Origin: an uncultured bacterium
GTDB lineage: Bacteria; Babelota; Babeliae; Babelales; Babelaceae
Assembly (NCBI GenBank): GCA_963713855.1
Contig: OY970209.1
Coordinates: 193,071 to 257,070 of the forward strand
Length of the DNA stretch: 64,000 nt
Reading direction: 5' to 3'
Shown here: one piece after another, positions 24,075 through 63,780 of the stretch
Numbering within the stretch: the first letter of the stretch is position 1
Layout of the letters: every line of letters begins with the position of its first letter
Notes under the pieces: generated by a model
What the model was told of the DNA's origin: nothing
What the model saw: the letters and a program-made list of their open reading frames with translations, nothing else
The model's database searches: none
Position numbers and translations under genes: made by a program

Positions 24075-24105
24075 AGCTCCCTCAATGTATTCTAAAGCAA
24101 GTTCT

Positions 24106-25293: not shown

Positions 25294-25360
25294 GTCTTAT
25301 CCTCCTTAACATTATTGAGTATAAAGACTTGCGCAAGGATGTCGAGCCTAAATAGGAGGA

Positions 25361-26281: not shown

Positions 26282-26335
26282 ACAATACTCCTTAAAAACA
26301 CATTTTTTTTCTTAAAATATATCAATGCGTTGTCG

Positions 26336-27118: not shown

Positions 27119-27131
27119 ATACGGTGCCTTT

Positions 27132-33604: not shown

Positions 33605-33611
33605 TCAAAAA

Positions 33612-33656
33612 AGTGCCCAGCATTCTAAAAAATACTGGGCACTAGATATTTGTTTT
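33612..33656. terminator. Hairpin plus T-run between convergent genes
   Basis: agtgcccag ... ctgggcact 9-bp stem (large loop), followed by agatatttgtttt. Confidence 0.45.
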
Positions 33657-33674
33657 AATAACGGTCTTTAACTT

Positions 33675-34541: not shown

Positions 34542-34680
34542 GATTACGCTCCTTCGGTGTGAGAAAAAAGAAATCGTCAGCTTTTAACAATCTCTCTGTT
34601 ATTAAATACTACTCGAGGAAGACTGTAGCATAAAAATAAATACATGTAGAGCCAAACTTCAAGAATCAAAAAACCACAAT

Positions 34681-34708
34681 AAAAAAGCGTGCCTCACGGG
34701 CACGCTTA
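34681..34708 (-). terminator. Rho-independent terminator downstream of 34734-35024
   Basis: On the minus strand: stem agcgtgccc/gggcacgct followed by TTTTT. Confidence 0.6.
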
Positions 34709-34733
34709 AGCTTTAATCGGTACCTAGGAAGCT

Positions 34734-35024
34734 TTAATCGTATTTTTCTTCCATTTCAATTTCTTCAGTACCTTCAGGTGTAGTTTCAATTTCTTCCCCA
34801 AAGATTCCAGCTACGAGGTCCTCATCTCCTAACTGCTCTGAAGATGCATTTGTTTGACCCAGATCCATTGCCGGAGCTGCTCCTACTGGCTGAGCCCCCA
34901 ACGAACGAGTAGCATCGGTAGACATATCAGCAGGACCCATATCCTCACGCTTATAACCTGGACAGGCTGCGTATACTGATGCCCCATAAGTTAAAAATAG
35001 CGCTATCGCTAGTACCTGTTTCAT
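34734..35024 (-). CDS. Small secreted acidic protein
   Basis: 96 aa. Signal peptide MKQVLAIALFLTYGASVYAAC; acidic low-complexity C-terminus. Confidence 0.45.
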   Translation of the reverse strand: MKQVLAIALFLTYGASVYAACPGYKREDMGPADMSTDATRSLGAQPVGAAPAMDLGQTNASSEQLGDEDLVAGIFGEEIETTPEGTEEIEMEEKYD

Positions 35025-35159
35025 ATTTTATCTCCTCTTTTCGATATCACATTTATTTTTATTAGTAAAAATATAATTTTATTAAAAAATCTACTTTACT
35101 TTAATAAGATACTATAAGCGTTTTAATAAAATCAACTTTCTAGGCAAAAAAACAAGGCT

Positions 35160-36179
35160 ATGCTATCCTGCAAACGTATACTGAAAGTGCTCATGCTTAG
35201 CCTAACTCGCCCCAAGGGCGTCCTTAATAAATTACTTCAAACCACCTATATTCATGTACATCTTAGTTTGTTTACCTTGCCCGTTATTCTTTTTTGGGGA
35301 TTTCCCTTAGCGCCTTGGGCTGTTCTAGGAAACCTCATATTTGCTCCTTTCCTATCACTTTTTCTTCTGGCCTCTTCAGTGCTTTTTATAACCGAAGTAC
35401 TTCATATACCAAACTATCTAGTAGTGGCCGTTCTTAATGTAATAACCGTATTTTGGAAGAGCGCACTACATTTCACCCCAAGCACACCTTATGTTCTTTC
35501 TTCACCGCACATATTAATTACCTGCATCATAGGCCTAATCGGAGCTTTTATTGTCCATACAAGGAACACAACACTGTTGGAGCGAATGTGTTATCTTCTT
35601 ATACTCACCGCAAGCACCTGGACTTACCTCTATTGCTTCTGTCAACCAAAAGCAGCTTTAAAATCATTTTCTCCCACACTTTTATATGTAAAAACGAAAG
35701 AAACTGCGTTGTGTATCGACAGGGGTACTCGGCTATATGCCCAAGACCAAAAAATAGCTTCCTGGTTTAAAACATTAAGCTATGATCAGGATGCGCTGCA
35801 CATTCTTATCTTTTTAAAACCTACAACAAGCGCGCCCCGCATAGCAAAACTTTTTCTTAAAGGTATTCATCAAGCGCTGATCGTTCTTCCTCAAAGTGAA
35901 TACGAAAAGCCAACTCCGCTTACACGTGCGATAGATGAACTTTTAGCATGGTCAAAACAGCGCAATTATGTTGTTATACATGTCAAAGAAGGTACAATCT
36001 TACCCGATTTTTTAGGGCTATGTTTCAACGTTAAAGGAAAGATCCGTAGATCCCCGGAACACCAACAAACTCTTTTTACCCTCAAAAGCTCTCTTTTCGC
36101 ATCCCCTCTGCTTCCTGTAATAACACGGCGCGAGCGGGAGCAGCTTCAGCACCGATTAAAGCAAGCGGTAGACACATAA
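35160..36179 (+). CDS. Hypothetical polytopic membrane protein
   Basis: 339 aa with multiple hydrophobic segments in the N-terminal half. Its 3' end overlaps the convergent cyclase gene by about 98 nt. Confidence 0.45.
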   Translation: MLSCKRILKVLMLSLTRPKGVLNKLLQTTYIHVHLSLFTLPVILFWGFPLAPWAVLGNLIFAPFLSLFLLASSVLFITEVLHIPNYLVVAVLNVITVFWKSALHFTPSTPYVLSSPHILITCIIGLIGAFIVHTRNTTLLERMCYLLILTASTWTYLYCFCQPKAALKSFSPTLLYVKTKETALCIDRGTRLYAQDQKIASWFKTLSYDQDALHILIFLKPTTSAPRIAKLFLKGIHQALIVLPQSEYEKPTPLTRAIDELLAWSKQRNYVVIHVKEGTILPDFLGLCFNVKGKIRRSPEHQQTLFTLKSSLFASPLLPVITRREREQLQHRLKQAVDT

Positions 36180-37792: not shown

Positions 37793-38717
37793 GTTTTCTC
37801 TCTTCTTTTTTTAAAACAAGTGCATGTCCACCAAAAGCCTGACGCAGTAAAGCAACTAGCTTTGTAGCATAATTTCCTCCCGTATCTCGAGACCAAGCCC
37901 TTATACGAAGAGCCTCTTCTATTAGAGGAACAGGTATGCCCTTGTCCTTAGCTTCATCTACAGTCCACTTTCCCGTTCCACTCTCTTGAATACTGCCGGT
38001 AATCTTCTCCAAATCAGGACTTTGTCTAAAAATCGTATGTGCTAGCTCCAAGATCCAAGAACGTATAATACTTCCATGGTTCCATAAGCTGCTTATGCGT
38101 GTAAGGTCTAAGTTCTTGTAAAAACCATCTTTTAAAAGGTAAAACCCTTCAGAGTATGCTTCCAAAACAGCATACTCTATGCCGTTATGAATCATTTTCA
38201 CGTAGTGTCCAGCACCTGACGGTCCAACATGTGCATAGCCATCGGGCGCTGCGAGTGCTTTAAAAAAAGGTATGCACTGCTCATAAGCTTTTGCATCTCC
38301 ACCAACCATAAGGCAGAATCCTACAGTTCTTCCCTGTAATCCTCCCGATGTTCCACAATCAAGAAAACAGACTCCGCGTTCTTTTAAGGCGTGCGATCGA
38401 CGTAATGTGTCTTTAAAAAAACTATTACCACCATCAATGATGATGCCCCCTTTTGAAAGAAACGGTGTAAGTTCGCGTAGCACGTCATCTACCACTTGAC
38501 CTGCCGGCACCATGAGCCAAAAGACATCAGCATTTTGAGCAACGATTTCGAGCGAATCAACTTTCTTCCATATCCCCTTCTCATGCTCACCCGACAACGT
38601 TATATCAAGAGTCTGCGGTGGATAACGGTCATAGCCAATTACATCAAATCCATGAGCTAAAAGCCGTGCGGCTATTGATTGGCCCATGCGTCCAAGTCCG
38701 ATAAGACCTATTTTCAT
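37782..38717 (-). CDS. gnd: 6-phosphogluconate dehydrogenase (decarboxylating), short Gnd-like/YqeC type
   Basis: 311 aa. N-terminal Rossmann GLIGLGRMGQSIAARL. Typical short-form 6PGDH length. Start overlaps the zwf stop (ATGA). Confidence 0.75.
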   Translation of the reverse strand: MKIGLIGLGRMGQSIAARLLAHGFDVIGYDRYPPQTLDITLSGEHEKGIWKKVDSLEIVAQNADVFWLMVPAGQVVDDVLRELTPFLSKGGIIIDGGNSFFKDTLRRSHALKERGVCFLDCGTSGGLQGRTVGFCLMVGGDAKAYEQCIPFFKALAAPDGYAHVGPSGAGHYVKMIHNGIEYAVLEAYSEGFYLLKDGFYKNLDLTRISSLWNHGSIIRSWILELAHTIFRQSPDLEKITGSIQESGTGKWTVDEAKDKGIPVPLIEEALRIRAWSRDTGGNYATKLVALLRQAFGGHALVLKKEERKHDS

Positions 38718-40075
38718 AAATTTCTTTCATGCATAAGTTTGCAAGCTTCTTTGGGGCCGCAAGACCCTTGTTTATAGGTAAAAAGAGGTAAATTCATGCT
38801 TTTAATTCTTTCAATAATACTCCATTGATATTCAATTTCATCAAATCTCACGGAAATCGTATGTTGGCCATTCATAATTTCTTTTAAAAGTATTTCATAG
38901 GCCTCTGGACTTTTTGGCCCGAAGACTGAAGCAAGATCGATAGTAGAAAGCTCGTTTTGAGTGCCAGGTTTTTTAATATTAAGCTGCAAAGAAACTTCCT
39001 CTTGAGGCATAATTCGTATCGTGAGCACGTTTGGCTCACACATACCCTGAGTGCTCCAAGGGCAATAAGCAATGGCTTTCAACATAATACGTACTTCGGT
39101 CGTTTTATGGTTAAGGGCTTTTCCCGATTCAATATAAAAAGGAACACCATGCCAAAGTGGATGATCAATAAAGAGCTTAAGAGCTGCGTACGTCTCAGTT
39201 TTCGATTCTTGCTTTACCCCTTGCTCTTTTTGATATCCCTCGTACTGCCCAAGAATACCATCGACGACGTTGATACTCCTTAAAACGTCCGCTTTTTTGT
39301 CACGAATAGCTTCGGGACTTACAGAAGCTGGCATATCCATCGCCACCAAAGAAAGAATCTGTAAAACATGATTTTGCACAACATCTTTCAAGACACCGTA
39401 CCGGTCAAAAAACTCTCCGCGTCCCTCAATCCCAATAGACTCATAAAAACATATTTTGACAGCATCAACAAATGTATTATTCCATATCGCTTTAAAAAGA
39501 GTATTAGCGTATCGTAAAGGCACAATAGAGCTTACAAGCCCTCTCGCTAAATAATGATCAATACGATACACCTGCTTTTCTGACAATGTGCGTTGTATGC
39601 ATGCATTAATAGACATGGCCGACTGCAAATCCCAACCAAAAGGTTTTTCGTACACTATTCGATATGCCATATCATGGGGCATAAGAGCACCAACAGCAAC
39701 AAGTTGTTCGGTAATAGAACAAAAGTAGTCTGCAGCAGTCGCTAAGTAAAAAAGACGAGGTTTTTCTTGTAAACCCTTCTCTTTTTGCGCATGGCGCAGC
39801 CTTTCTTCAAGAATCCCAAAATGTTCGAGTTTTGCAAAATCTACAATTGTATAAGCAAGTAGTTCTTTAAACCGACGCCAAACATCTTCTTTAAAGTCCT
39901 TTATGAAAGGACGAGCACGTTCACAGATAGCATCAACGGTGACATCTTCGCGCCCAGTGCCCATGATAAGTCCAATTGGATTACCCTGCTCAAAAAGAGC
40001 ATACAAGGCCGGTAAAATTTTTCTTTTACTAAGGTCTCCCGTTATGCCAAGAATAACGATGGTCCACTTATCCAT
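38714..40075 (-). CDS. zwf: Glucose-6-phosphate 1-dehydrogenase
   Basis: 453 aa. ILGITGDLSKRKILPALY (NADP site), RIDHYLARG (RIDHYLGKE-like), EKPFG. Confidence 0.88.
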   Translation of the reverse strand: MDKWTIVILGITGDLSKRKILPALYALFEQGNPIGLIMGTGREDVTVDAICERARPFIKDFKEDVWRRFKELLAYTIVDFAKLEHFGILEERLRHAQKEKGLQEKPRLFYLATAADYFCSITEQLVAVGALMPHDMAYRIVYEKPFGWDLQSAMSINACIQRTLSEKQVYRIDHYLARGLVSSIVPLRYANTLFKAIWNNTFVDAVKICFYESIGIEGRGEFFDRYGVLKDVVQNHVLQILSLVAMDMPASVSPEAIRDKKADVLRSINVVDGILGQYEGYQKEQGVKQESKTETYAALKLFIDHPLWHGVPFYIESGKALNHKTTEVRIMLKAIAYCPWSTQGMCEPNVLTIRIMPQEEVSLQLNIKKPGTQNELSTIDLASVFGPKSPEAYEILLKEIMNGQHTISVRFDEIEYQWSIIERIKSMNLPLFTYKQGSCGPKEACKLMHERNL

Positions 40076-40308: not shown

Positions 40309-41496
40309 TTAGAGTTCTTGCTTTTGAGAATGTTGCTCAAAAGATCTATAAAAGAACTTTGCAATAAGCTCATTCGTCAAAAAAACATTCTGCCCTTTTT
40401 CTAAAGTAAAAATACCACGAGAGTTAAACATGGAGTGAGAATCTAAAACTACTGTATATCCTTCACCGATAAGAATTTCTTGTATTGTATGTATGAGCGA
40501 TGATTCTGAGGCACAAAAAACTGTCTGCGCACGCGAAAGATCCAAGATATGTTCAAGAGCATAATAGGCTGCCATCTGATTTGGATAAGCAATCTGAGCG
40601 AATAGGTTATGTGATTCGGTAAATGCTTCTTTAAGCACTCCTGAACGGATGTATCTATAAGTAAGGTCAATCATCAATCCTTGTACTGTCAGAATTGGAG
40701 CGCCCTGTTCTTTTAGGGTGCGGTCAAACTCATTGAGACCATCACTTAATGAATGGAACCTGCGTTTAGATTCACTTTCTATAAAGTTAATAAGGTTTTC
40801 GATAGTTATTTTTTGCTTTTTATTTTTGAGAAGCTTAGAGTCTCTGCGAAGTACACGCACAAAGTCGTTCAATTGAGCTTCTATTTTTTCTAAAAATTCT
40901 TGAAGCTTAAAACCTTTGTCACGAGCATATCGGACACAGTTACTATGTACTTGGCGCAATGTAGAATCAAACACACTATCATATCCCTTTAAAGAGGAAA
41001 GGCTAGCTTCAAGCTCAGTGATAGTTCTGCTTATATAATAAACATCACTTTTACCTTCAGCACGTTTTCCCAGCGCTTGCAAAGGCTTTGTAATATCTTT
41101 TTGCCTTAACTGAGCTTTGATTATCTGCTCATTTTCCTCCAAACACTCCGCCTCACCCTGCACTAAACATTGACAAAAATGAAGGGGAGCGAAAGCTTTA
41201 GCATACAAGCCATCATAAGGATATCTCGAATCTAAAAGAAATTTTTTTCCGCCATACGTTTTTACCTGATCAAACCAGTAAAAAAGCTCATCAGCATCTT
41301 GAGACGCCTCGTAAGTCTTTTCTTCCAAGGCGTTAGCATTAAGCTCTTGGCATACAGGACCATCAACGCTTATAAGATAGACTTGTTGCAGCCCTTTCAA
41401 TAGGGACTTCTTTTCGAGCATGACGATGCGCGCTACACCAGCATTTAATGAGGCACAAAAAATAAACGATACAATGATGCTAAACCTAAGATACAT
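40309..41496 (-). CDS. Secreted hypothetical protein, paralog family B copy 2
   Basis: 395 aa. Signal peptide; N-terminal VMLEKKSLLKG and C-terminal HTIQEILIGEGYTVVLDSHSM conserved with the 27132-28340 protein. Confidence 0.5.
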   Translation of the reverse strand: MYLRFSIIVSFIFCASLNAGVARIVMLEKKSLLKGLQQVYLISVDGPVCQELNANALEEKTYEASQDADELFYWFDQVKTYGGKKFLLDSRYPYDGLYAKAFAPLHFCQCLVQGEAECLEENEQIIKAQLRQKDITKPLQALGKRAEGKSDVYYISRTITELEASLSSLKGYDSVFDSTLRQVHSNCVRYARDKGFKLQEFLEKIEAQLNDFVRVLRRDSKLLKNKKQKITIENLINFIESESKRRFHSLSDGLNEFDRTLKEQGAPILTVQGLMIDLTYRYIRSGVLKEAFTESHNLFAQIAYPNQMAAYYALEHILDLSRAQTVFCASESSLIHTIQEILIGEGYTVVLDSHSMFNSRGIFTLEKGQNVFLTNELIAKFFYRSFEQHSQKQEL

Positions 41497-41600
41497 GGCA
41501 ATCCCAATCTATAAGATACTTAAAAATGTAAGTATAGCACGCATCTTTCTACACTAAAATCCTTATAGAGTGCTTAAAAAGCAAGGCTAGGAGAAATATG

Positions 41601-41835
41601 CGCCTACGCGGCGAGCGCAAGGGCCATTCGCCCTTGACCCAGGCTTTATGACCTTGCCCCACACCCTTCTTAAACTTTTTACGGTTGTTTATATATACCG
41701 GAAAGGGAATCCCTTTCCGGTAATATGCGTAATGAGATAGACCGGGTACCGGTCTTATCTCATACACAATAAGCATGTAACACGCATAACAAGCAACAGG
41801 TGCAGGACAATGTCCTGCCGCTCGCCGCGTAGGCG
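41601..41835. repeat. 235-bp highly structured element bounded by perfect 17-bp inverted repeats (candidate ncRNA or MITE-like element)
   Basis: cgcctacgcggcgagcg (41601-41617) is the exact reverse complement of 41819-41835. At least four strong internal hairpins: 41618-41636, 41698-41720 (perfect 11-bp arms), 41734-41761, 41803-41817. Confidence 0.55.
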
Positions 41836-41984
41836 TATCATTACCTCATTGTTATTCGGGCACAGAACCCAGCTTTAAGGGACTTTATTCAAGGCAAAGT
41901 CAATGTAACTATTGTTTTTCAGCTATAAATATTAGTAATATTAATATATACATTATATATACAGTTAAACATTAGGGGTGCCAC

Positions 41985-42167
41985 ATGTGCAATAAGAAAC
42001 ACCATCACCATCATGACATGGAAAAAAACGGCGTAGAGCTTTTGCAAGAAGCAGTACATGTACTTAAGCACATCGAGCGCCATCTTGATCAAATCAGTGA
42101 CTGCGTTTCACGATGGGATGAAGAGGAAGAAGAGCTTTTGTGCCTTTGCGACGAAGAAGAAGACTAA
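41985..42167 (+). CDS. Small His-rich / acidic protein (possible metal-binding)
   Basis: 60 aa: MCNKKHHHHHDMEKNG...CVSRWDEEEEELLCLCDEEED. Stop is 2 nt before the next gene's start. Confidence 0.35.
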   Translation: MCNKKHHHHHDMEKNGVELLQEAVHVLKHIERHLDQISDCVSRWDEEEEELLCLCDEEED

Positions 42168-42169
42168 GT

Positions 42170-42796
42170 ATGCGTTCTAATGTAATTCTTTGCACTTACC
42201 TGCTTGCGGCCTTTTGCCAAGCACAGAGTGATCCTACCTGTGATATGACCGCATTGGCCTTATTAGAAAAAGATATTCCCGCTATTCCACAAGCGTTACA
42301 AGTGCTAGGCGACTGCTTTAATTACCTCGACTCAACTTCGTTTAAGCACACAAAAAACGATGGCACTTCGTATTGCACTACCGACCCGAAAGAGAGTCCT
42401 GAATTGCAGCTCGCTCATATGGAATCGCACCTTGCATCGATAGAGGCTGATCAAGGTAGCTATTGTTGCTCGGTCGAGGAATGTGCAGCTACATGCCCAC
42501 CAAGCAGCACAAAAAATACCTGTAATACTAATGATAGCTGTAAACCGCATGCGCCCGCTTTTATAAAAACGCTCGAAGTAAAACCTCGCATTCAAAATAT
42601 TGCCAATAGGCTTCAGGCCGTAAAGCCATTCGTTGATAATCCGGGCGAATCGCCATGTCCGTCAGGGCCTTCCTCAACAACTACGTCAAGCACACCACAA
42701 GGCCAACCAACGACCACCCAGCCTATAGAAGTTACCGGACTTGATGGCGCTACGCAACTACTCGCTCAAAAAAGATTCAGCCTTAAAAAACGATAA
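42170..42796 (+). CDS. Secreted Cys-rich protein with Ser/Thr/Pro-rich linker and basic C-terminus
   Basis: Start taken at MRSNVILCTYLLAAFCQAQS (the ORF allows 42140). About 12 Cys; low-complexity STTTSSTPQGQPTTTQP. Confidence 0.45.
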   Translation: MRSNVILCTYLLAAFCQAQSDPTCDMTALALLEKDIPAIPQALQVLGDCFNYLDSTSFKHTKNDGTSYCTTDPKESPELQLAHMESHLASIEADQGSYCCSVEECAATCPPSSTKNTCNTNDSCKPHAPAFIKTLEVKPRIQNIANRLQAVKPFVDNPGESPCPSGPSSTTTSSTPQGQPTTTQPIEVTGLDGATQLLAQKRFSLKKR

Positions 42797-42800
42797 GCCT

Positions 42801-43469
42801 CTAGACTGCTGGATGATTTTTAGTATCTCTCTTTATAACAACCCACAAGAATGCAGCGCTTATAAGTGCTGCAAAAAAGCACCAAACGGAAATGAAAAAA
42901 GCACGTCCCACGTATAAACTTGCTATACATGACAGAGCAAGAACAACTCCAAAATAGTTAAGAACCCGATTGGAAGAAGCGATCAGTGAACCAACGGTAA
43001 CCAAAAAATACCAGGCTATAAGAACTTGAAAAGGAACCGCTCGACCTGTTACTGGTATTGTATATTCTATGTACATTCCTTGCGTGGATATATAGACACC
43101 GTAGGTCATAAGGTAATAAAGTAAAAAGCCTATAAGAGGTAAACTAGCCAATAAAAAGCCATTAATGATTTTTTTTCGCAGAGCATCCTTTTCATTCATG
43201 CCTACCGATAAGGGTATCCAAAATGGCCAAAACCCGAACGCAAAAATCAAAAAAATATACGTAAAAAATTCACTCCATTCACGAAGTTGTGTGTGAGTTC
43301 CCGAAAGCCATACCATGCCCTCGGAGCCTTGCTGAACCGCAAACAAAAGCAGAATTACTGCAAACATGCGTCCACCCAATGAACGCGCTTTGTAAAACGA
43401 TATGAGACCAATCGTCAAAAGAGAGACTGACGCAGCAAAACTAGCACCCGCACAAAAACACATATGCAC
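42801..43469 (-). CDS. Hypothetical polytopic membrane protein
   Basis: 222 aa, about 6 predicted TM helices. Confidence 0.45.
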   Translation of the reverse strand: MHMCFCAGASFAASVSLLTIGLISFYKARSLGGRMFAVILLLFAVQQGSEGMVWLSGTHTQLREWSEFFTYIFLIFAFGFWPFWIPLSVGMNEKDALRKKIINGFLLASLPLIGFLLYYLMTYGVYISTQGMYIEYTIPVTGRAVPFQVLIAWYFLVTVGSLIASSNRVLNYFGVVLALSCIASLYVGRAFFISVWCFFAALISAAFLWVVIKRDTKNHPAV

Positions 43470-43599
43470 CTCTTAAGCTCATAACATATTAGCAGTAGAC
43501 TGGCTCGAGTGCAAATAACGGCTAGTAGCTAACTATTGATAATGTATCAAATTGCTATACTATTAAGAAGAAGTCGTTGCTTCTTATAAGGATTTTTTA

Positions 43600-44154
43600 A
43601 TGAAAAAATTACTTGTAGTCATTTTTTTTATGACTTGTACAAGTACGAAAACGCACAGTGAACATGACATTACTAGTAATGTCTTCAAAAAGACCGCCCC
43701 CATTCAAGAGCACAAAGCTTGTAAATGTCATATAGTAGACATTAAACACCTTTGCGAAAGACAAGAAGAAGTCTTATATCTTATTCAAAAAAGGTACCAG
43801 GAAGCCAAACACGTTACAACCCAGTATTACTTTTACTATCTTGGAAATGCCATTTTACTTTCCATCGTGCTGGGCATTTTTTGTTTTATTGTATATAAGT
43901 TCCCCTCTGAATATAACTCGGCTTTATGGCCTGTAACGCATGATGGATATAATCAAAAATTGACCTCATTTTTAAAAACCATAGACTTCTTCGAAGCTTT
44001 CTTAGCAACGACTATCACGATTGACTCTCTATGGCTTATGTGTCTCGACTTAAAAGATGCATCAATTAAAGCCAATCTTAAAAAGCTCAAAGATGAGCAC
44101 AACATTCTTGATAATGAAATTGAAAAAACAGTAACTCACAAGGAAACTCCGTGA
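43600..44154 (+). CDS. Small membrane protein, tandem paralog family C copy 1
   Basis: 184 aa. Signal-like N-terminus, central hydrophobic segment, C-terminal coiled-coil LKKLKDEHNILDNEIEK. Confidence 0.45.
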   Translation: MKKLLVVIFFMTCTSTKTHSEHDITSNVFKKTAPIQEHKACKCHIVDIKHLCERQEEVLYLIQKRYQEAKHVTTQYYFYYLGNAILLSIVLGIFCFIVYKFPSEYNSALWPVTHDGYNQKLTSFLKTIDFFEAFLATTITIDSLWLMCLDLKDASIKANLKKLKDEHNILDNEIEKTVTHKETP

Positions 44155-44792
44155 AAAAAACGTACATAGCCCTTATTCTCTTTGTATTCGCTTTAAACCT
44201 TGAAGCTGAAAATCTAGAAGAGTACCGTCCGAACAGCAATGCGAATCTAAAAACCCCCTCAATCCAACATAAAGCTAGCTTAATTGAGACCTTAAAAGAC
44301 AATCCAAGCATTTCAAATGAACATTTAACCGAAATCTTGCAAAAAAGACAGGATAATATTGCACATCATTACAAAGAAGCGTATACGCTGAGCCAAAAAG
44401 TGCACAACCAATTCATGTACCTTATAATTGCTATTTCTGCGATAGGGATAGCTAACTTTGCCAATATGTGTTATGTGATAGGAAGGCGTCTTAACCATTA
44501 TAAAAGGCAAAACGTCCTTATTACAAAGCACCCACATTCTCCTTTTATTGGCCTATTGGAAGCGGAACGAAAAACGAACAATGTGGTAGATTATGTTTCC
44601 GCTGTGATTTTAATAGCTTTCGTTGCTACTGCTGCCTGGGGCGGATATCTTTATAGCACGCTATCAGCAATCGATTCTGATAAGCAAAAGTTGAACGAAG
44701 AGCATGTTTTCCTCGCTGAGGAAATTAGACTACTGCAAGACGAAAAACAAGGATCAAAAAGCTCCGTTTTAGAATCGAAGGTTAACGGATAA
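44151..44792 (+). CDS. Small membrane protein, tandem paralog family C copy 2
   Basis: 213 aa. LNLEAEN, LIETLKD, SNEHLTEILQKRQDNI and C-terminal EEHVFLAEEIRLLQDEKQ conserved with copy 3. Start overlaps copy 1's stop. Confidence 0.5.
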   Translation: MKKTYIALILFVFALNLEAENLEEYRPNSNANLKTPSIQHKASLIETLKDNPSISNEHLTEILQKRQDNIAHHYKEAYTLSQKVHNQFMYLIIAISAIGIANFANMCYVIGRRLNHYKRQNVLITKHPHSPFIGLLEAERKTNNVVDYVSAVILIAFVATAAWGGYLYSTLSAIDSDKQKLNEEHVFLAEEIRLLQDEKQGSKSSVLESKVNG

Positions 44793-44879
44793 TCAATTAC
44801 GCGATGCTCAAAGATTTTTTGAAAATTTATTAAGTTGCTATAGCCTAAAACTGTTCATCACTCAAACAAAGGATTTTAC

Positions 44880-45518
44880 ATGAAAAAATTGCTTATACCT
44901 CTTGTTATGATCACCATCAGTTTAAGTCTTGAGGCTCAAACTAAAGATATAAGCTTTGACAGCGATGAGATTGCTTTAGCCCAAGAACGCCAGGCTCGCT
45001 TAATTGAAATCTTAAAAGACGTGCCTGTAGATGCAAAGGTCTCAGATGAGCACATGATTGAAATCATAAAACAAAAACAGGACGAGATTTCAAAGCTCTA
45101 TAAAGACGATTATGAGACATATCAGAATTTATCCCAACAAGACTATTATCACACTTTTATTGGCGGTGGTTTAATTTCGGGGGTTTTTGCTCTTCTCCTA
45201 TATCAATTGAATAAATATCGAGCTATCGGTAAAACACGTCAAGATTTTTTTGGTGAGCACACTCCTGAGTGTACAGTATCGTTTCAAGATGTTACTAAAC
45301 TATTGCTTCAAGAAGATAAAAATTTAGGAGGCATAAATAACGCTTCCGTCTTAACGGTGCTTACCTCTGCTATTTATTACTTTTGGACACTGTACCTATC
45401 AAACCGCCTTACAAAAACCAACGTTAATATGCAAGACCTAAAAGATGAATATGCTTTCCTCGAGGATGAGATTGAAATTCTAAAAAATGAAAATTGTAGT
45501 CCTAAAAGTAAAACATAG
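44880..45518 (+). CDS. Small membrane protein, tandem paralog family C copy 3
   Basis: 212 aa. SLEAQT, LIEILKD, SDEHMIEIIKQKQDEI, C-terminal DEYAFLEDEIEILKNE. Confidence 0.5.
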   Translation: MKKLLIPLVMITISLSLEAQTKDISFDSDEIALAQERQARLIEILKDVPVDAKVSDEHMIEIIKQKQDEISKLYKDDYETYQNLSQQDYYHTFIGGGLISGVFALLLYQLNKYRAIGKTRQDFFGEHTPECTVSFQDVTKLLLQEDKNLGGINNASVLTVLTSAIYYFWTLYLSNRLTKTNVNMQDLKDEYAFLEDEIEILKNENCSPKSKT

Positions 45519-56773: not shown

Positions 56774-57814
56774 GTGATAAGCAAAATAGCATGCAAAACA
56801 ATGTTTCTTTCTTTAAGCCTAAGCTCATTTAGGCTGAGTCATGCTCAGTGGACTCAAAGGCATAGTAAAACGTATGCTTTGGCTGCCGGTAGTCAGAATG
56901 TAGTACTATCAAGTTTGCATGCAGGATGGGATATTAAGCCTTTTACACAACTTATTATTTCTTGGAACGCACGAAAACCAAAAAAGGGATTTTTGCGTTT
57001 TTATGCGCGCATCCGCCAAAACAAAACAAAAAAATGGCTCCGTTGGCACTTACTTGCAGATTGGGGGAAAATGATACAAAAGTCCTATATGAGTCGTTTT
57101 ATGGGATCCACGCACCACTTTGTCCGTACGGAATTAGACGAAAAATTGAAAGCAGATGCTTTTGAAATTAAAGTTGAAGCCAATAATGGCGCCTGCCTTA
57201 AAGATCTCTATTGCCTAGGAGCTACCTCATCACTTATAAGCTCTATGACAAAAGAGAGACCGCATAGTTTACGATCGTTGCAAAGCGTACGCGTAAAGGG
57301 GGTACCAGCTCTATCACAATGGCAAATCAAACACCCAGAAAAGTATCGCCTCTGCTCACCAGCATCCTTGACCATGATGATTAGCTATTTAAATAAGCAA
57401 AAAATGGATCCGGCTCGTTTTGCTAAAGATGCTTACGATGCAGGCTTAGATGCTTATGGTAGCTGGCCTTTTAACATCGCTGCAGCATTTGAGGCGGCAA
57501 TGGGCAAATATCACTTTTTTGTAACACGATTACAGAATTTTAGAGAATTGCACACCTTACTCAACGCCTCAGTTCCTGTAGTTGTCAGTGTACGTGGCAT
57601 ACTTAATGGCGCTCCTAAGCCGTATCTGCACGGACATCTTCTCTTGGTCGTAGGATACGATGCACACAAAAAAAAGGTCTTATGCCATGATCCTGCTCAA
57701 CCGCACTATAAAGCAGTACTAACTCGCTATCCACTTGCTTCATTTTTGGCAACATGGGAGCGATCGCACCGACTTTCGTACGTGCCAAAGTCTCGCCTAA
57801 GGAGTCAATCATGA
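56774..57814 (+). CDS. Peptidase C39-like (papain-fold) domain protein, secreted
   Basis: 346 aa; GTG start in the ORF track. Signal-like N-terminus; YRLCSPASLTMMISYL resembles the catalytic-Cys motif of the Peptidase_C39_2 family. Confidence 0.45.
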   Translation: MISKIACKTMFLSLSLSSFRLSHAQWTQRHSKTYALAAGSQNVVLSSLHAGWDIKPFTQLIISWNARKPKKGFLRFYARIRQNKTKKWLRWHLLADWGKMIQKSYMSRFMGSTHHFVRTELDEKLKADAFEIKVEANNGACLKDLYCLGATSSLISSMTKERPHSLRSLQSVRVKGVPALSQWQIKHPEKYRLCSPASLTMMISYLNKQKMDPARFAKDAYDAGLDAYGSWPFNIAAAFEAAMGKYHFFVTRLQNFRELHTLLNASVPVVVSVRGILNGAPKPYLHGHLLLVVGYDAHKKKVLCHDPAQPHYKAVLTRYPLASFLATWERSHRLSYVPKSRLRSQS

Positions 57815-59055
57815 ATGTATATCGACTCTTTATATTATGCTTTAGCTTTATGACTCTGCGATGCACAACGTCGCCATGGTGGAAACCATATAACCTCAAA
57901 AAAACGTCCGTCGTCATTGTACCCGTTGCTGATCTACTTATAAAGCCTGCATGCACATACCTTAAAAAACGCACATGCACACAATCGGTTTACGACCAAC
58001 TTCCTCTATCGGGAGAAACAACTGACTTTCCCGTTGTAAGAGTCCATCAAGCGCTCTTTAACGAAATATTAACGGATACCCGATGCACAAGAACTGAATG
58101 CAAAGGAAAGATGCCGGATGCGTGGTATGGAATAGACGAAAAAACTAAAGACCCATTGACAACGTTCTATACTAAAGCGCTTAACATGTGCCCACTTTCA
58201 ACACTAGTAAGCAAAGGGCTCGACCTTAATTTGCTGCCAACCCCTTCTTGGGCTACGTCTTATGAGCCAGGTACGGTTGTATCATTGCTCCTTCCTTGGA
58301 AAAATGAGTTAACAGGAACGCATTATTCAGCAGGGACACGTTTTAAAAGATCCTCAAGCGAAGATACGCTTTCCCATTATGCTGTCTATGCGATAAACTA
58401 CACACATTTTTCTGCTGATATTCTCTATATACCACGACGTTATTGCTTAATCGAGTATAAGAGAAATGCGCAACAACAAAGAACGCTCTTTATGGACATA
58501 ATAAGGCGCTGGACCTATCATCCAGGCATTATTCCATACGTTCTAGGTGGGGCGAGCTTTCTACACAGCTACGACCCCAAAAAAGAGTTTACGCTCGATA
58601 ATCTCATCTGGAAAAGAGAAGAAGTGTATTACCCCCACACTGGATTTGATTGTGCAAGCCTCATATGGCGAGCATGCCGCATAGCAGGTATACCGTGGTG
58701 GTACAAAAATACCGCTACTATCGGTCAATACCTTACTCCTTTAACACCCGAAGAAGTCCTACAAGAAGGCGATCTCATTTGGGTTCAAGGACATGTCATG
58801 ATCGTGAGTAATAAAGAAGATAACGAGCTCATTGAGTCGGCGGGATACAAATCGGGGTATGGCAAGTTACACACGCTACCTATTAGTCAGCGTATTGCAG
58901 GTATAACAACGTATACGGATCTTCTTGAAGCTTATTTTGCAAACAAGACACTAACATTACTCAATAAAGAAGGCATCCCGCAGCCGCCACTTCCGTTCAA
59001 ATTATATAAGTTATTCAAGGAGTCCGAAGTACCGAAAGCAAGCCCAGAAGGATAA
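57811..59055 (+). CDS. NlpC/P60-family cysteine peptidase (cell-wall hydrolase-like)
   Basis: Start at MNVYRLFILCFSF (RBS aaggag 7 nt upstream; ATGA overlap with the previous gene). GFDCASLIWRACRIAGI (catalytic Cys) and GHVMIV (catalytic His). Confidence 0.65.
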   Translation: MNVYRLFILCFSFMTLRCTTSPWWKPYNLKKTSVVIVPVADLLIKPACTYLKKRTCTQSVYDQLPLSGETTDFPVVRVHQALFNEILTDTRCTRTECKGKMPDAWYGIDEKTKDPLTTFYTKALNMCPLSTLVSKGLDLNLLPTPSWATSYEPGTVVSLLLPWKNELTGTHYSAGTRFKRSSSEDTLSHYAVYAINYTHFSADILYIPRRYCLIEYKRNAQQQRTLFMDIIRRWTYHPGIIPYVLGGASFLHSYDPKKEFTLDNLIWKREEVYYPHTGFDCASLIWRACRIAGIPWWYKNTATIGQYLTPLTPEEVLQEGDLIWVQGHVMIVSNKEDNELIESAGYKSGYGKLHTLPISQRIAGITTYTDLLEAYFANKTLTLLNKEGIPQPPLPFKLYKLFKESEVPKASPEG

Positions 59056-59057
59056 TC

Positions 59058-60314
59058 ATGAAGATTATGCGCATCGTAGGAAAGGAAATATACGATTCTC
59101 GTGGTTGGCCGATACTACTTTGCGAAGTGTGGTTAAATGATGGTTCAGTATTTATCGGGCATGCACCAGCTGGAAACGCTAGAAGCAAATACGAGGCCCA
59201 TGAAATCAGAGATGGTGACAAAAGGCTTTGGGGCAAAGGTATGACTAATGCTATAGCACTCATTGAGAGCACCATAGCTCCGCTACTCATTGGACACATC
59301 GTAGAAATGCCAGATCTCGATTTCATGCTTATCGAGCTAGATGGATCTCCGGACAAATCTCGTTTAGGAAGCAATGTATTAACAGCGACAAGCATGGCTC
59401 TTTATAAAGCATTTGCTTATACGCAAGATTTGGAACTCTATGAACTTTTTGCTTACATGATAGGCGCTGACTCAGTTACCCTTCCCTGTCCAATTTTTAG
59501 CGTTGTTAGTTGCTCAAAAGATAGAGCGCACAGGCTTGCTGTGCAGGAATTTACGCTTGCACCCATAGGAGCAACAACACTCAAGCAAGCTGTAGAGCTC
59601 TCAATCACTCACTATCATGAAGTTAAGGCAATGCTTCACGCAAAAGGTTCCTTGGTAGGCATTGGTGAAGAAGGCGGATTGACCGTTAATGTTGCGGATG
59701 AACGGGAGATACTCGATGTACTTATGCGGTCTTTAGAAAAAGCCTCATTAGAAGAAAGCGGCCTATGCGCTATCGGACTTAACGGATCGGCCACAGAACT
59801 CTACGACCCAACACAAAAAAAATATATCATTCGAGACAAAGAGTATACGGCTTCAGAACTTGTAAGCCTTTACAGCGAGCTTGCGCAAACCTATCCGATT
59901 TTTTCAATTGAAGATGGTTTGAGCGAGGACGATTGGGACGGTTGGAAGCTCATTACCGAAACACTCGGAGACAAAATTCAAATTGCAGGAGACGCACTCT
60001 TTTCAACCAACGCTGAAAGACTGGAACGCGCTCTTCAATCAAATGTAGCAACTGCTGCCTTGGTCAAACTCAACCAAGCAGGCACTATAACTGAAACAGT
60101 ACAATTTATTAATCTTTGCAGAGCATATCGCTTAAATCCCATTATATCGCATCAACCGGGCGAGATAGAGGACGCATTCATTGCCGATTTAGCTGTTGGA
60201 ACAAGCGCCGGACAATTTAAAGCAGGTGGCTGCTCTCGCATGGAACGCATTGCAAAATACAATCGTCTTTTAGCTATTGAGCACAGTCTCATAGCTGAAC
60301 GTGATAAGCTCTAA
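59058..60314 (+). CDS. eno: Enolase-family protein, divergent (several canonical active-site residues substituted)
   Basis: 418 aa, clear enolase fold (SIEDGLSEDDWDGW, KLNQAGTITET, AKYNRLLAIE). Deviations: SHQPGEIED for SHRSGETED, GLNGSATE for LDxAASE, AGNARS for SGASTG, GDAL for GDDL. Confidence 0.7.
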   Translation: MKIMRIVGKEIYDSRGWPILLCEVWLNDGSVFIGHAPAGNARSKYEAHEIRDGDKRLWGKGMTNAIALIESTIAPLLIGHIVEMPDLDFMLIELDGSPDKSRLGSNVLTATSMALYKAFAYTQDLELYELFAYMIGADSVTLPCPIFSVVSCSKDRAHRLAVQEFTLAPIGATTLKQAVELSITHYHEVKAMLHAKGSLVGIGEEGGLTVNVADEREILDVLMRSLEKASLEESGLCAIGLNGSATELYDPTQKKYIIRDKEYTASELVSLYSELAQTYPIFSIEDGLSEDDWDGWKLITETLGDKIQIAGDALFSTNAERLERALQSNVATAALVKLNQAGTITETVQFINLCRAYRLNPIISHQPGEIEDAFIADLAVGTSAGQFKAGGCSRMERIAKYNRLLAIEHSLIAERDKL

Positions 60315-63229
60315 GAAGGAAACGATTCTTCTTGCTCCGGGCCCGGTTCTTCATTTATCGGCCTCACCTCTCTTTCAAATTCCTCTAGCGGCGCTAATGG
60401 GTTCAAACGGCTTTCTGGCGGTGGAGGTGGTACCACTGTAGGTGGAGGCACTATGTAGTTTTCGCGCATATATGCCTCAATAACATCCTGCGTTGCACGC
60501 TCATCGCTGCCAAAGAAGAACCTTACAACAGGATCTTTACTATTGCCCATTACGTTATATTCTATCGGCGTTGTTTCACATCGCACCTTGTCACGCGTAT
60601 ATTGGTTCATAAGAACGCGACGACGTGGATCGATGATGGTCGGCTTTATGAAGATGCCAAGTTCGGTCTCCTCAATAGATTGAGTAGCCCCGCGGAATAA
60701 CCAGCCAAGAACAGGAATTCGTCCCAAAATAGGCGTTTCAGTTACAGATTGAGTCTTGGTTGTCTGCTTAAGCCCTCCAAGCACAAGAATTTCACCGCTA
60801 GGATCTTTATCGTTAGCCCCACGCATATTTACGTTCGTTTGCACATAACGAGACGCTCGGGTAAAGCCAGTTGCATCGGTAAATGCCTCTGTCTTAACCT
60901 TAATCTCTAAATTAAGGCGCTCTATTGAGCTTATACGCGGAGTCAAGCTTACGCTCAGAGTTGCTTGAATATCAGCGATGTTAACCTCTATAGCACCGCC
61001 AGTAGAACTGGATCCATCTGCTGCGGCCCGTCTAACATCGGTGTTGTAAACGACAGCGTTCGTATTATCAAGCGCAATAAGATATGGATGCGCAATCACC
61101 CGGGTATGACCATATTGTTCAAGTATTGCAAGAACCTGCCAAATACCCATATTAAAAAAGTCATTAACAGAAACAGCAAACGTTCCTGGAGTACCCGGAA
61201 GGACAGTCGTTTCAACGCCGGCCGAATTTGTAAAGAATCTTAATAAGTCACCCGTAATAGTTGTGCCTACCGGACATGCTGGCTGTTGACCAACGGCTGC
61301 CGCGGCTTTAAGCCCAGCTTGAGCGGCAGACTGAACTGCTTCTTTAACAGGTGAAGCACCAGCTAAAGCTTGTCCAATCATATTTGCGCTTTTGCCGCCG
61401 ATGCTTTCAGCAGCTCCTTGAGCAGTAGTTTGAGCCGCAGTTGCAGCCGCAACACCGCAATCGACACTTGTCAGAATGTTGCTTCCGATATTTGCAGTCT
61501 GTACACCTGCTCCTGGCATTAAATCGGCACGAATAGGGTTTCTTGCTTGGCTTTGAAGTGCTTTATTTTCATCTCGGGTAAAGTCTACGATAAGTACTTC
61601 AAGAATGACTTGCTTTTGAGGTATATCAAGCTGATCTACAAGCTTTTTGATTTGTTCCCAATCAGACGGTTGAGCTGCTACCAAAAGACGGTTGCCACCG
61701 CGATAGACCGTGGCACTTGCAGCACCTTGCTCAAACTCATTGCCAGCACCCGCTGAAGCAACCTCAGTTGGCGCTGTAACGGCCTGATACGTTTCTGCTC
61801 GAATAACGACACCTTCAAAAAAGCGCCGCGCACCACCTCCTCGCTCAACACTCTTTTGATCCCCTATCCCAGTCGATCGCACTACGCTACTAAGAACATC
61901 GGCGAATGATTGAGCATCCAAATATTTAAGGTCATACACGTGGAAAATCGATTTACCAGTACCAGCAGGTGCATCCATAAACTCACGGACAAAATCTTTT
62001 AACCTATTAACAGGAGACTCTTTGCCCATGACGATAAGCGTGTTGCGACGCGGATCAGCAACAACCCGAATATTAGTGGAAAAATAAGTACCCATACCTA
62101 CTGCACGCACATCAGGGCTCATCGGTCTGTTTTTACCGCTCACTGCAAGAATTTGAGTATTAAGTAAGTCAGACACGTATCCGGCATTTGCATTAAAGAG
62201 CTGCATCGTAATAAGAATATGCTTAGACGTTGCTGAATCAAGCTCTCGCAATATTTGAAGAGCGCCTGTTACAAGTCGGGCCTTATCAGTGATAACAATG
62301 GCATTAGAAAGAGGGTCCACAAAGACATTATTTGGGGCTGAAAGGGTTTCCCTTAAAAGAACCAAAACCGGACTATTAGGTTGCTCATCCACTTTCATGT
62401 TAGCTAAATAGTATACTACACGTATGTAAGCATCATTTTGAGGCAAATCTTCAGCTCTCAAGCGAGTAGCAGCATTAAAAACATAGAGCGGCAATACGTT
62501 CGTTGAAGCCTCTTTTGTTTTAATAACAAGCTCAAACTCTGCGCGAGGAGAAACAGTGTACCCAGCATAGTCAAGAAAAAGATACAGGTATTTTTGCGCT
62601 TCATTAAGCGTCAAAGGGTGAGGGGGCTTAAAAGTAATTTTTTGCTTAATGGCATTAGCTTGCTGAGGTAAAATGATGTTTACTCGCCTTTTTCGAGCAT
62701 AACGTTCAATAGCCTCAGTCAAATCAGCGTTATCAAATGAAAAATCAATTAAATCAGGCGGAAGATTTTCAGTGATAGGTTTTTGGTTTACTTCCTCTTT
62801 TTCTTTCTTTGCTTTTGGTAAATGCTCTTTAGCAACAACAGGCGCTACGACCGCTTCAGCAAGCGTTGGCGCATGTGCCGGAGGTGCATGCGCTTTTAGT
62901 TCCTTAAGCTTTTCTTCTGCCTCTTTTTTAGTTGTTTCCTTTGACTCAAGTATGAGCGGATGAGCGGGGGTTGGTGTTGCTTTTGGGCCAGTGATAGGCT
63001 TTACTTCCTGGACTTGTGGCTCAGACGTTACAATTTTTGTCTTATCAGATGGTGTTGCCGGGGTTTCCTGCGCGCTTGTAATAGGTTGAAGAATAGGCGT
63101 GCTTGAAGCAAGAGGCTTTGAAACTACAGTCTCTGCTGCTTTATTCGCTAAAGGAACACCCATCAAAAGAAGGGTCAAGCACGCGCGTGATAGCTTTATG
63201 AGTAATGTAAGCAATATGTTCATAATCAT
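60311..63229 (-). CDS. sctC: Type III secretion system outer-membrane secretin (SctC/YscC; chlamydial CdsC-like with long N-terminal extension)
   Basis: 972 aa. Signal/TM N-terminus and a low-complexity Pro/Ala/Lys-rich extension of about 250 aa. Secretin domain with C-terminal ...GGLKQTT...ETPILGRIPVLGWLFRG.... Pro-rich C-terminal tail. Confidence 0.85.
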   Translation of the reverse strand: MIMNILLTLLIKLSRACLTLLLMGVPLANKAAETVVSKPLASSTPILQPITSAQETPATPSDKTKIVTSEPQVQEVKPITGPKATPTPAHPLILESKETTKKEAEEKLKELKAHAPPAHAPTLAEAVVAPVVAKEHLPKAKKEKEEVNQKPITENLPPDLIDFSFDNADLTEAIERYARKRRVNIILPQQANAIKQKITFKPPHPLTLNEAQKYLYLFLDYAGYTVSPRAEFELVIKTKEASTNVLPLYVFNAATRLRAEDLPQNDAYIRVVYYLANMKVDEQPNSPVLVLLRETLSAPNNVFVDPLSNAIVITDKARLVTGALQILRELDSATSKHILITMQLFNANAGYVSDLLNTQILAVSGKNRPMSPDVRAVGMGTYFSTNIRVVADPRRNTLIVMGKESPVNRLKDFVREFMDAPAGTGKSIFHVYDLKYLDAQSFADVLSSVVRSTGIGDQKSVERGGGARRFFEGVVIRAETYQAVTAPTEVASAGAGNEFEQGAASATVYRGGNRLLVAAQPSDWEQIKKLVDQLDIPQKQVILEVLIVDFTRDENKALQSQARNPIRADLMPGAGVQTANIGSNILTSVDCGVAAATAAQTTAQGAAESIGGKSANMIGQALAGASPVKEAVQSAAQAGLKAAAAVGQQPACPVGTTITGDLLRFFTNSAGVETTVLPGTPGTFAVSVNDFFNMGIWQVLAILEQYGHTRVIAHPYLIALDNTNAVVYNTDVRRAAADGSSSTGGAIEVNIADIQATLSVSLTPRISSIERLNLEIKVKTEAFTDATGFTRASRYVQTNVNMRGANDKDPSGEILVLGGLKQTTKTQSVTETPILGRIPVLGWLFRGATQSIEETELGIFIKPTIIDPRRRVLMNQYTRDKVRCETTPIEYNVMGNSKDPVVRFFFGSDERATQDVIEAYMRENYIVPPPTVVPPPPPESRLNPLAPLEEFEREVRPINEEPGPEQEESFPS

Positions 63230-63780
63230 TCTGGGGCTAATTTTGGTTGTAAAGTAGCTATAACTAACGTTACATCAACTTTATCTACTTTTGGTTGCTT
63301 AATAACAACAACTTCTTTCGTATAGACACGATCATTTTTTTCGATCTTATACAAAAGTTCTGAAAGTTGTTTAGTGTCAATATCTCTAAAACTCGTATCA
63401 AGTTGTACTTCCTCATACCCATTATTAAGGTCGTTTTCGGTAATTGTGGGCGTTTTACTCATCTTATTTGCTAAACCAACTTCTTTTAGAAGGAGCTCAA
63501 AATACTGGGGAATTTTAAAATTCTTGTCTCGATTTAAAATAGTGTCTACGGCTGCTCTTTGTTCTACGATGCTCATGTGTTCTTGTAAAATACCTTTAAC
63601 GACTTCTCGCTGCTTATTGACGCGATTCATACGTAAAACAAAACCATTAATACGTCGCCTTTGCCAGTAAGCAAGCAGTCCCACTAAAGCAATGACTATT
63701 ATAGAAAAAAGCGCAATGTACCGATAAAAGGTTTTTATATCAAGCTCACGTATGGCATTTCTTATGTCTGCAATAGTCAT
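63226..63780 (-). CDS. T3SS-cluster single-pass membrane protein (function unknown)
   Basis: 184 aa with one TM (YIALFSIIVIALVGLLAYW). Translationally coupled to sctC (ATGA overlap) and to the upstream gene. Confidence 0.5.
   Translation of the reverse strand: MTIADIRNAIRELDIKTFYRYIALFSIIVIALVGLLAYWQRRRINGFVLRMNRVNKQREVVKGILQEHMSIVEQRAAVDTILNRDKNFKIPQYFELLLKEVGLANKMSKTPTITENDLNNGYEEVQLDTSFRDIDTKQLSELLYKIEKNDRVYTKEVVVIKQPKVDKVDVTLVIATLQPKLAPE

Follow-up and report, generated by a model that had tools for sequence, protein, structure and literature searches.

A conserved enolase ortholog with a degenerate active site in Dependentiae, probably retained as a pseudo-enolase

Enolase (EC 4.2.1.11) is the textbook moonlighting enzyme, and selection on its non-glycolytic roles is hard to show, as its catalysis is essential almost everywhere. 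Here we describe an enolase homolog encoded at positions 59058..60314 on the plus strand of a 64,000-nucleotide (nt) stretch of DNA from an uncultured, obligately intracellular bacterium of the Babelaceae (Babelota; phylum Dependentiae, also called TM6; GenBank assembly GCA_963713855.1, contig OY970209.1, positions 193,071 to 257,070). This whole stretch is referred to as the window, and all positions are given in it; catalytic residues follow yeast enolase numbering unless a window residue is named. The window protein resembles the canonical bacterial enolase, represented by Escherichia coli Eno (1E9I, 2FYM), in its two-domain fold and its length, and is its ortholog by synteny and phylogeny. 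In contrast to the canonical enzyme, S39, H159, D246, D321, R374, and S375 are replaced, and the substitution rate is roughly doubled. The residues involved suggest that the window enolase is probably not catalytically competent. We consider it probable that this is an orthologous enolase whose 2-phosphoglycerate dehydratase activity is gone or severely impaired, the protein itself having been kept as a pseudo-enolase. An ortholog that is free of catalytic constraint yet strongly conserved amounts to a natural separation-of-function experiment, in which whatever still constrains the window protein would be a role of the enolase scaffold that is either new or independent of catalysis.

Enolase polypeptides outside glycolysis are known from eukaryotes, where tau-crystallin and MBP-1 serve structural or regulatory roles. 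Unlike the window protein, they come from the active ENO1 gene and are neither orthologs with a decayed active site nor bacterial. The E. coli enolase-RNase E degradosome (2FYM, 5OHG) and the plasminogen-binding surface enolases provide a model for a selectable, non-catalytic scaffold role, but these moonlighting enolases are fully active enzymes, whereas catalysis in the window protein is apparently gone. The closest relatives are found in a Dependentiae enolase clade, with which the window protein shares the clade signature and the proximity to a gspD/PilM cluster. Apart from one subclade, formed by the window protein and six relatives, members of this clade retain all 13 catalytic residues. 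Our literature searches returned no description of a degenerate Dependentiae enolase or of a bacterial pseudo-enolase.

The open reading frame (ORF) consists of 418 codons for amino acids and has the full-length architecture of an enolase. Pfam assigns residues 3-129 to Enolase_N (PF03952, E 6e-31) and residues 140-412 to Enolase_C (PF00113, E 3e-76), and with the NCBIfam model TIGR01060 'eno' the protein reaches 400.7 bits, well over the cut-off of 300. Identity to bacterial enolases with solved structures in the PDB is about 40%. An AlphaFold2 model, built from an input alignment of 48 sequences, has a mean predicted local distance difference test (pLDDT) of 92 and a predicted template modelling score (pTM) of 0.91. 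Structurally, the model follows the enolase fold, as Foldseek aligns it to E. coli enolase 1E9I with a TM-score of 0.92 and a root-mean-square deviation of 2.1 Å; 2FYM and 5OHG are also among its best structural matches. A weak Pfam MR_MLE_C match (E 1e-7) reflects the barrel shared with the mandelate racemase/muconate-lactonizing enzyme (MR/MLE) subgroups. In contrast to these subgroups, the window protein belongs unambiguously to the enolase subgroup, as seen from its Enolase_C score, and is without MR/MLE catalytic motifs.

The residue register was taken from gap-free HMMER alignments to PDB enolases and from a MAFFT alignment of 122 sequences. An E. coli enolase sequence served as a ruler and is in agreement with the PDB alignments. 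In catalytic loop 1 (59169..59186, plus strand, as are all features of the gene), SGASTG is replaced by AGNARS, so that the Mg(II) ligand S39, the fourth residue of the motif, becomes Ala41 (59178-59180). Catalytic loop 2 (59499..59531) reads SVVSCSKDRAH in place of N-I-I-N-G-G-x-H-A-D-N, with H159 changed to Asp155 (59520-59522). No other segment is as relaxed in the subclade as this loop, and block 151-160 is the block of lowest confidence inside the model (pLDDT 75). The Mg(I) ligand D246 is Asn242 (59781..59783), as (L/M)DxAASEF has become LNGSATEL. In the GDDL motif, now GDAL (59991..59996), the Mg(I) ligand D320 is retained as Asp312, and the adjacent D321 is replaced by Ala313. SHRSGETED reads SHQPGEIED, in which H373 is kept as His365, and R374 and S375 are replaced by Gln366 and Pro367 (60150..60158). 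The retained catalytic residues are spread over 59547..60221 and comprise E168 (Glu164, 59547-59549), E211 (Glu205, 59670-59672), E295 (Glu285, 59910-59912), K345 (Lys337, 60066-60068), and K396 (Lys388, 60219-60221).

Taken by function, the general base Lys345 and the general acid Glu211 are present together with Glu168, Lys396, and His373. Of the three carboxylates that ligate Mg(I) in canonical enolases (Asp246, Glu295, and Asp320), two remain as Glu285 and Asp312, and Asn242 stands at the position of Asp246. Ser39 of loop 1, which ligates Mg(II), is Ala41, and the phosphate contacts His159, Arg374, and Ser375 have all been lost (Asp155, Gln366, and Pro367). The window enolase therefore carries six substitutions at once, S39A, H159D, D246N, D321A, R374Q, and S375P. 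In yeast enolase, S39A and H159A each lower activity by three to four orders of magnitude. In Mycobacterium tuberculosis enolase, S42A (equivalent to S39) is without MgB and retains about 5% activity, and D241A (equivalent to D246), E163A, E204A, and K335A are non-functional (PMC10619443). Arg364 of that enzyme (equivalent to R374) forms a hydrogen bond with the phosphate of the substrate and, like His154 and Lys335, touches the ligand in all poses (PMC10619443). As expected of a pseudoenzyme, essential catalytic residues have been lost from an otherwise conserved homolog, and relatives lose further ones.

An earlier sequence-only reading of the window had described a clear enolase fold, which Pfam, NCBIfam, the AlphaFold2 model, and Foldseek all support. 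It had also placed the changes AGNARS, GLNGSATEL, SHQPGEIED, SCSKDRAH, and GDAL by eye, and these recur in both the HMMER and the MAFFT alignments; its register was right. Tabulating the catalytic positions after alignment to canonical enolases showed that the catalytic Ser, Asp, and Arg are indeed replaced, and that the general acid/base Lys and Glu are retained as had been proposed, with Lys337 aligned to K345 and Glu205 to E211.

The exact window protein is also present in an independent Logan assembly (run ERR11571144) and in a contig of more than 1 Mb. The protein search with the window enolase did not itself list this identical sequence, so that a missing self-match in that search is no sign that a genome is lacking from the collection. 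Its best match, P0001, is an 83%-identical ortholog found on three contigs from three runs, and it has most of the substitutions in common with the window protein. An assembly or sequencing artefact behind the substitutions is ruled out by the exact protein in the independent assembly and by the changes common to orthologs.

The comparison set was drawn from the best 120 matches of a protein search with the window enolase, in which canonical enolases appear only from about rank 78. About 79 of the top matches form a divergent clade with the signatures IKPNQIG and GQIKAG and with a loop 1 of the form xGxSxx rather than SGASTG. We read this clade as the Dependentiae enolases and their nearest relatives; one member (P0123) is named, as Candidatus Babeliaceae. 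The window protein has VKLNQAG where the clade has IKPNQIG and GQFKAG where the clade has GQIKAG. Across 71 clade members and 42 canonical enolases, the 113 comparators of a neighbour-joining tree, the 13 catalytic positions read SHEEDEDDKHRSK. They are broken in one monophyletic subclade of seven, consisting of the window protein, P0001, P0002, P0003, P0005, P0006, and P0010. Here the same positions read ADEENEDAKHQPK in the window protein, ADEENEDAKYQSK in P0001, AQDEDENNKHCPK in P0002, MDEADEDDKHRSK in P0003, SHEKDEDDKHRSK in P0005 (E211K alone), SCEEDEDAKHRSR in P0006, and VTENNEGDKLGGK in P0010, which has lost E211, D246, D320, H373, and R374.

The substitution set differs in each member of the subclade and includes E211A/K/N, D320G/N, and H373L/Y. 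Judged by the residues concerned, several of these combinations are unambiguously lethal for catalysis. The window protein and P0001 have S39A, H159D, D246N, D321A, and R374Q in common. Such a pattern, with a different set in every member, is expected if selection for catalysis lapsed early, near the base of the subclade, and each lineage then lost these sites on its own. All seven proteins are full length, at identities to the window protein down to 54%. A new conserved active-site signature was not found in the subclade: a dozen residues are enriched (for example F89, V107, and A67), none of them in catalytic motifs. Outside the subclade, P0014 represents an independent break (AHDEHEDDKHQAK), next to an intact sister, P0016; the convergent secretin gene known from the window recurs at its locus. 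P0076 has a single catalytic change, H373Q. The aligned residues thus suggest that catalytic constraint on an orthologous enolase was lost at least twice independently, in the subclade and in P0014.

The loss of constraint is concentrated at the active site. Among all comparators, 68 positions are at least 95% conserved, and 24 of them have changed in at least one member of the subclade. The changed set comprises 11 of the 13 catalytic positions, compared to 13 of the 55 other universal positions (Fisher p = 8e-5). All seven members retain the remaining 44. When column entropy was compared between the seven degenerate sequences and seven intact sisters of similar divergence, relaxation was confined to residues 37-45, 145-162, 199-207, 235-252, 334-342, and 361-369 of the window protein. 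These segments correspond to loop 1, loop 2, the E211 strand, the D246 region, the K345 strand, and the HRS loop, respectively; elsewhere, constraint is equal or tighter, the tighter segments being residues 136-144, 298-306, and 352-360.

The subclade has also evolved faster. In Tajima relative-rate tests, its members exceed their intact sisters in unique substitutions about twofold in nearly all comparisons, and at most about threefold (p 0.06 to 2e-7, with p < 0.05 in 27 of 28 tests). The window protein itself shows 62-74 unique substitutions compared to 24-38 in intact sisters (p 2e-3 to 1e-6), and the independent case P0014 shows 63 compared to 24 in P0016 (p = 3e-5). Between the window gene and the eno gene of locus L081, which encodes P0001, the proportion of differences is 0.093 at nonsynonymous sites (pN) and 0.70 at synonymous sites (pS), and the ratio of nonsynonymous to synonymous divergence (dN/dS) is about 0.05 corrected and 0.13 raw, values that are approximate because dS is saturated. 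Among eight neighbouring genes, this ratio is the joint lowest, together with that of the H+-pyrophosphatase gene. Between the intact loci L088 and L091, identity is 79% for eno and 50-51% for the two genes upstream; in degenerate pairs, the corresponding values are 65-66% and 53-62%. The advantage of eno over its neighbours is thus smaller in degenerate than in intact lineages, yet eno is still more conserved than they are. Purifying selection has continued after the loss, as seen from pN/pS, the 44 kept positions, and the limitation of relaxation to the active site. The window eno is clearly under strong purifying selection that acted after most of the substitutions had arisen.

The genomic setting of the gene is shared with intact enolases. 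An array of a C39-like peptidase gene, a gene for a protein of about 410 amino acids (gene X), eno, and a convergent secretin gene is present at the degenerate loci L081 (P0001), L086 (P0002), and L093 (P0003), and, without gene X, at the degenerate locus L084 (P0010). The same array surrounds the intact enolases of L088 (P0009) and L090 (P0004). At L091 (P0008), also intact, the upstream genes are the same, and an ankyrin-repeat gene takes the place of the secretin gene downstream. In a Babeliaceae genome, eno is located 5.6 kb from a secretin gene. In the neighbour-joining tree, the branch of the window enolase lies inside the clade that its intact relatives form, so that tree and locus agree on orthology. 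Sharing this conserved locus with its intact sisters, the window gene is best understood as the ordinary eno of its lineage, altered in place. The sequence-only reading had proposed a pseudo-enolase or moonlighting paralog of reduced or altered activity, as opposed to the housekeeping enzyme. The broken invariant sites and the relaxation at the active site favour the first part of this proposal; the conserved eno locus speaks against a paralog.

Further observations concern the history of this locus. A TspO/MBR gene lies directly upstream of eno in the Babeliaceae genome (L089, 7511-7993), and a TspO/MBR remnant of 68 amino acids is found between gene X and eno in L091 (9798-10004); none is present in the window lineage. 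This series, from gene to remnant to absence, indicates that the eno locus was remodelled stepwise.

Based on these observations, we regard the window protein as very likely to be essentially inactive as an enolase, and a non-catalytic role as the probable reason for its retention. We postulate that selection on catalysis ceased at the base of the subclade, and that the likely trigger was a lower glycolysis that had become dispensable in an energy-parasitic, intracellular lifestyle with import of adenosine triphosphate (ATP). Dependentiae have been described with partial glycolysis and a pentose phosphate pathway (PMC4776705), and as being without any complete metabolic pathway and importing ATP (PMC6561590). 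No pgk, gap, gpm, pyk, or tpi gene was found among the 45 ORFs of at least 150 amino acids in the 64 kb window, a small part of a genome of roughly 1.52 Mb. The retained role would have pre-existed in the active ancestor, with the protein offering a stable platform to a partner protein or RNA. Moonlighting by bacterial enolases, such as their partnership with RNA-degrading enzymes, would be the model for this role, although a degradosome-like function in particular seems rather unlikely. No RNase partner, binding motif, or sign of export came to light for the window protein in this analysis. As the score lies above the curated 'eno' threshold, automated annotation would credit these Dependentiae with an enolase step that they probably lack, which affects inferences on the supply of phosphoenolpyruvate and ATP in these energy parasites.

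Several observations weigh against a pseudo-enolase. The acid/base pair K345/E211 is intact in the window protein, together with E168, K396, H373, E295, and D320, so that residual or altered catalysis is possible. Glucarate dehydratase, another member of the enolase superfamily, has Asp, Glu, and Asn as metal ligands, and by analogy the Asn at position 246 could still ligate Mg2+. The M. tuberculosis S42A enzyme retains its few percent of activity (about 5%; PMC10619443). The window also carries genes for glucose-6-phosphate dehydrogenase (G6PD) and a 6-phosphogluconate dehydrogenase (6PGD)-like protein, which indicates that sugar-phosphate metabolism has not been abandoned. The dN/dS values are approximate, as dS is saturated. 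Lastly, the conserved operon neighbours are the same around intact enolases and so do not explain the change in the active site.

The retained residues would be accounted for by a working but weakened enolase, in which the acid/base residues are sufficient together with the two or three metal ligands that can still be used. The retention of K345, E211, E168, K396, H373, E295, and D320, a score above the TIGR01060 equivalog cut-off, the strong purifying selection, and the activity remaining in M. tuberculosis S42A (PMC10619443) are all consistent with such an enzyme. In this explanation, the new basic residues of loop 2, Lys154, Arg156, and His158, would perhaps replace R374 and H159 in phosphate binding; Lys and His are found at the same loop 2 positions in the window protein, P0001, and P0002. 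We nevertheless find a weakened enolase very unlikely. Five or six normally invariant active-site residues have changed together, the M. tuberculosis counterpart of the D246 position does not tolerate Ala (D241A is dead; PMC10619443), and the active site is precisely where the relaxation falls. Furthermore, close relatives have lethal sets (E211A/K/N, D320G/N, H373Y/L), which argues that catalysis is not what selection holds.

The distribution of the losses raises a second explanation, namely a neofunctionalised enzyme in which the acid/base residues and the Mg(I) site are kept and the phosphate/Mg(II) pocket is remodelled for a different, probably non-phosphorylated, carboxylate substrate. 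Such an enzyme would dehydrate its substrate or abstract its alpha-proton. In the window protein, P0001, P0002, and P0014, the losses are mainly of phosphate/Mg(II) contacts (S39A, R374Q/C, S375P/A), and E211, K345, K396, and E295 are always kept; of these four proteins, P0014 alone still has H159. Two acidic ligands and one Asn remain in the window protein and in P0002, and S39A and R374Q recur in two independent lineages. Replacement of Ser by Ala and of Arg by Gln is frequent, however, which makes the recurrence weak evidence, and a consistent new signature is missing: the three closest relatives disagree at D246, D320, H373, E168, and H159, and the few residues conserved specifically in the subclade (for example F89, V107, and A67) are located outside the active-site motifs. 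Other subclade members lose E211 itself. Linked metabolic genes are also absent, the neighbours being the same as for intact enolases. To our knowledge, the enolase subgroup of the enolase superfamily is regarded as isofunctional. It is a long shot that this subgroup gave rise here to a new enzyme acting on a host-derived, non-phosphorylated carboxylate, and similarly improbable that the survival of K345/E211, K396, and a metal site of two carboxylates plus Asn or His in the window protein, P0001, and P0002, and convergently in P0014, marks such an enzyme.

The window gene might instead be a spare, either redundant or a diverged paralog, beside a canonical enolase elsewhere in the genome that carries the glycolytic load. 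It occupies the ancestral eno locus of the intact sisters and nests within their clade, which argues against a duplicated paralog. We regard a spare copy as highly improbable; a second enolase acquired by transfer, outside the 64 kb of this genome of roughly 1.52 Mb, is conceivable. As weaker evidence in the same direction, the contigs of P0001 (184,665 bp) and P0010 (1,268,486 bp) yielded no second enolase-like protein among the best 120 matches, a scan of limited weight because canonical enolases appear in it only from about rank 78. A dying gene without function, on its way to a pseudogene, would fit the roughly doubled amino-acid substitution rate and the lost catalytic residues but is hardly credible, as it is contradicted by the selection data: intact full-length ORFs in all seven subclade members down to 54% identity, a pN/pS of at most 0.13 over saturated synonymous divergence, a higher conservation of eno than of its neighbours, the 44 universal non-catalytic positions kept in all seven, and a preserved Shine-Dalgarno sequence and operon position.

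A Shine-Dalgarno-like GAAGGA, read directly from the sequence, is located 5 nt 5' of the eno ATG (59047..59052, plus strand). The stop codon of the upstream gene (59053-59055) is separated from the eno start by a gap of 2 nt, which suggests co-transcription and translational coupling of eno with this gene. In a promoter and terminator scan around the eno operon, scores did not exceed those of shuffled sequence.

The array opens with the C39-like peptidase gene (56774..57814, plus strand), identified by Pfam (Peptidase_C39_2) and synteny. Gene X follows at 57811..59055 on the same strand, its start, taken from the L094 gene call, overlapping the stop codon of the peptidase gene (ATGA). Its product of 414 amino acids begins with a hydrophobic stretch like that of a signal peptide, and sequence searches against Pfam, NCBIfam, and the PDB gave no match for gene X. 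An alignment of seven syntenic homologs shows an invariant D-C-(A/S)-x-L-I-W-R ... G-H-V motif, which we read as possibly akin to that of NlpC/P60 cysteine peptidases.

On the other side, the convergent secretin gene (60311..63229, minus strand; Pfam Secretin and Secretin_N) overlaps the 3' end of eno by 4 nt at its own 3' end, in agreement with the convergent arrangement described by the sequence-only reading. That reading had taken the neighbour for the type III secretion system (T3SS) secretin sctC, an assignment that does not hold. The NCBIfam model TIGR02517 (GspD) scores 213 bits and TIGR02516 (SctC) 89, both below their cut-offs, so that SctC is not the best match, nor is the gene part of a T3SS cluster. 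On syntenic contigs, the secretin gene is the last of a cluster encoding a GspC-like protein, a secretin, PilM, a 184-amino-acid protein, and the secretin in question (L081, 11254-20503). Two gspD copies are found in all TM6 genomes, and whether they serve a type II secretion system (T2SS) or a type IV pilus (T4P) is an open question (Yeoh et al., PMC4776705). Judged by profile scores and cluster composition, the neighbour is a GspD-type T2SS/T4P secretin, matching the two-gspD arrangement of TM6. The secretin-side region (60311-63780, minus strand) runs on past the end of the window.

The rest of the window contains genes for an H+-pyrophosphatase, G6PD, a 6PGD-like protein, and an ankyrin-repeat protein. 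In the G6PD gene (38714-40075, minus strand), the substrate-binding motif RIDHYLGKE reads RIDHYLARG, with Lys changed to Arg and Glu to Gly. Nearly all of the 120 listed G6PD homologs have RIDHYL(A/T)KE, and Arg at the position of this Lys occurs only in P0130, which is 100% identical and from this genome, and in P0137. Homologs with a name are annotated as Candidatus Babeliales, Babeliaceae, or Dependentiae. A chlamydial origin of the window, which GC content and the secretin might suggest, is rejected, since gene context and named homologs indicate Dependentiae/Babeliales. The G6PD may be a second enzyme of central metabolism with an altered key residue in this genome.

An Rfam scan of both strands of the 64 kb gave no family at gathering score, tRNAs included. 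Five consecutive ORFs at 23319-28340 on the minus strand (275, 395, 306, 260, and 402 amino acids) have no Pfam match at E <= 1e-4, and further ORFs without a Pfam match lie in 32684-36179 and 40309-45518. The ankyrin-repeat protein (18629-20404, minus strand) consists of 591 amino acids, nearly all of them in ankyrin repeats; proteins of this type are proposed host-interaction effectors in Dependentiae (PMC6561590). In this reduced genome of an intracellular bacterium, a stand-alone LigD primase-polymerase domain protein (6820-7704, plus strand; E 4e-85) adjoins a Ppx/GppA-family phosphatase (5579-6811, plus strand).

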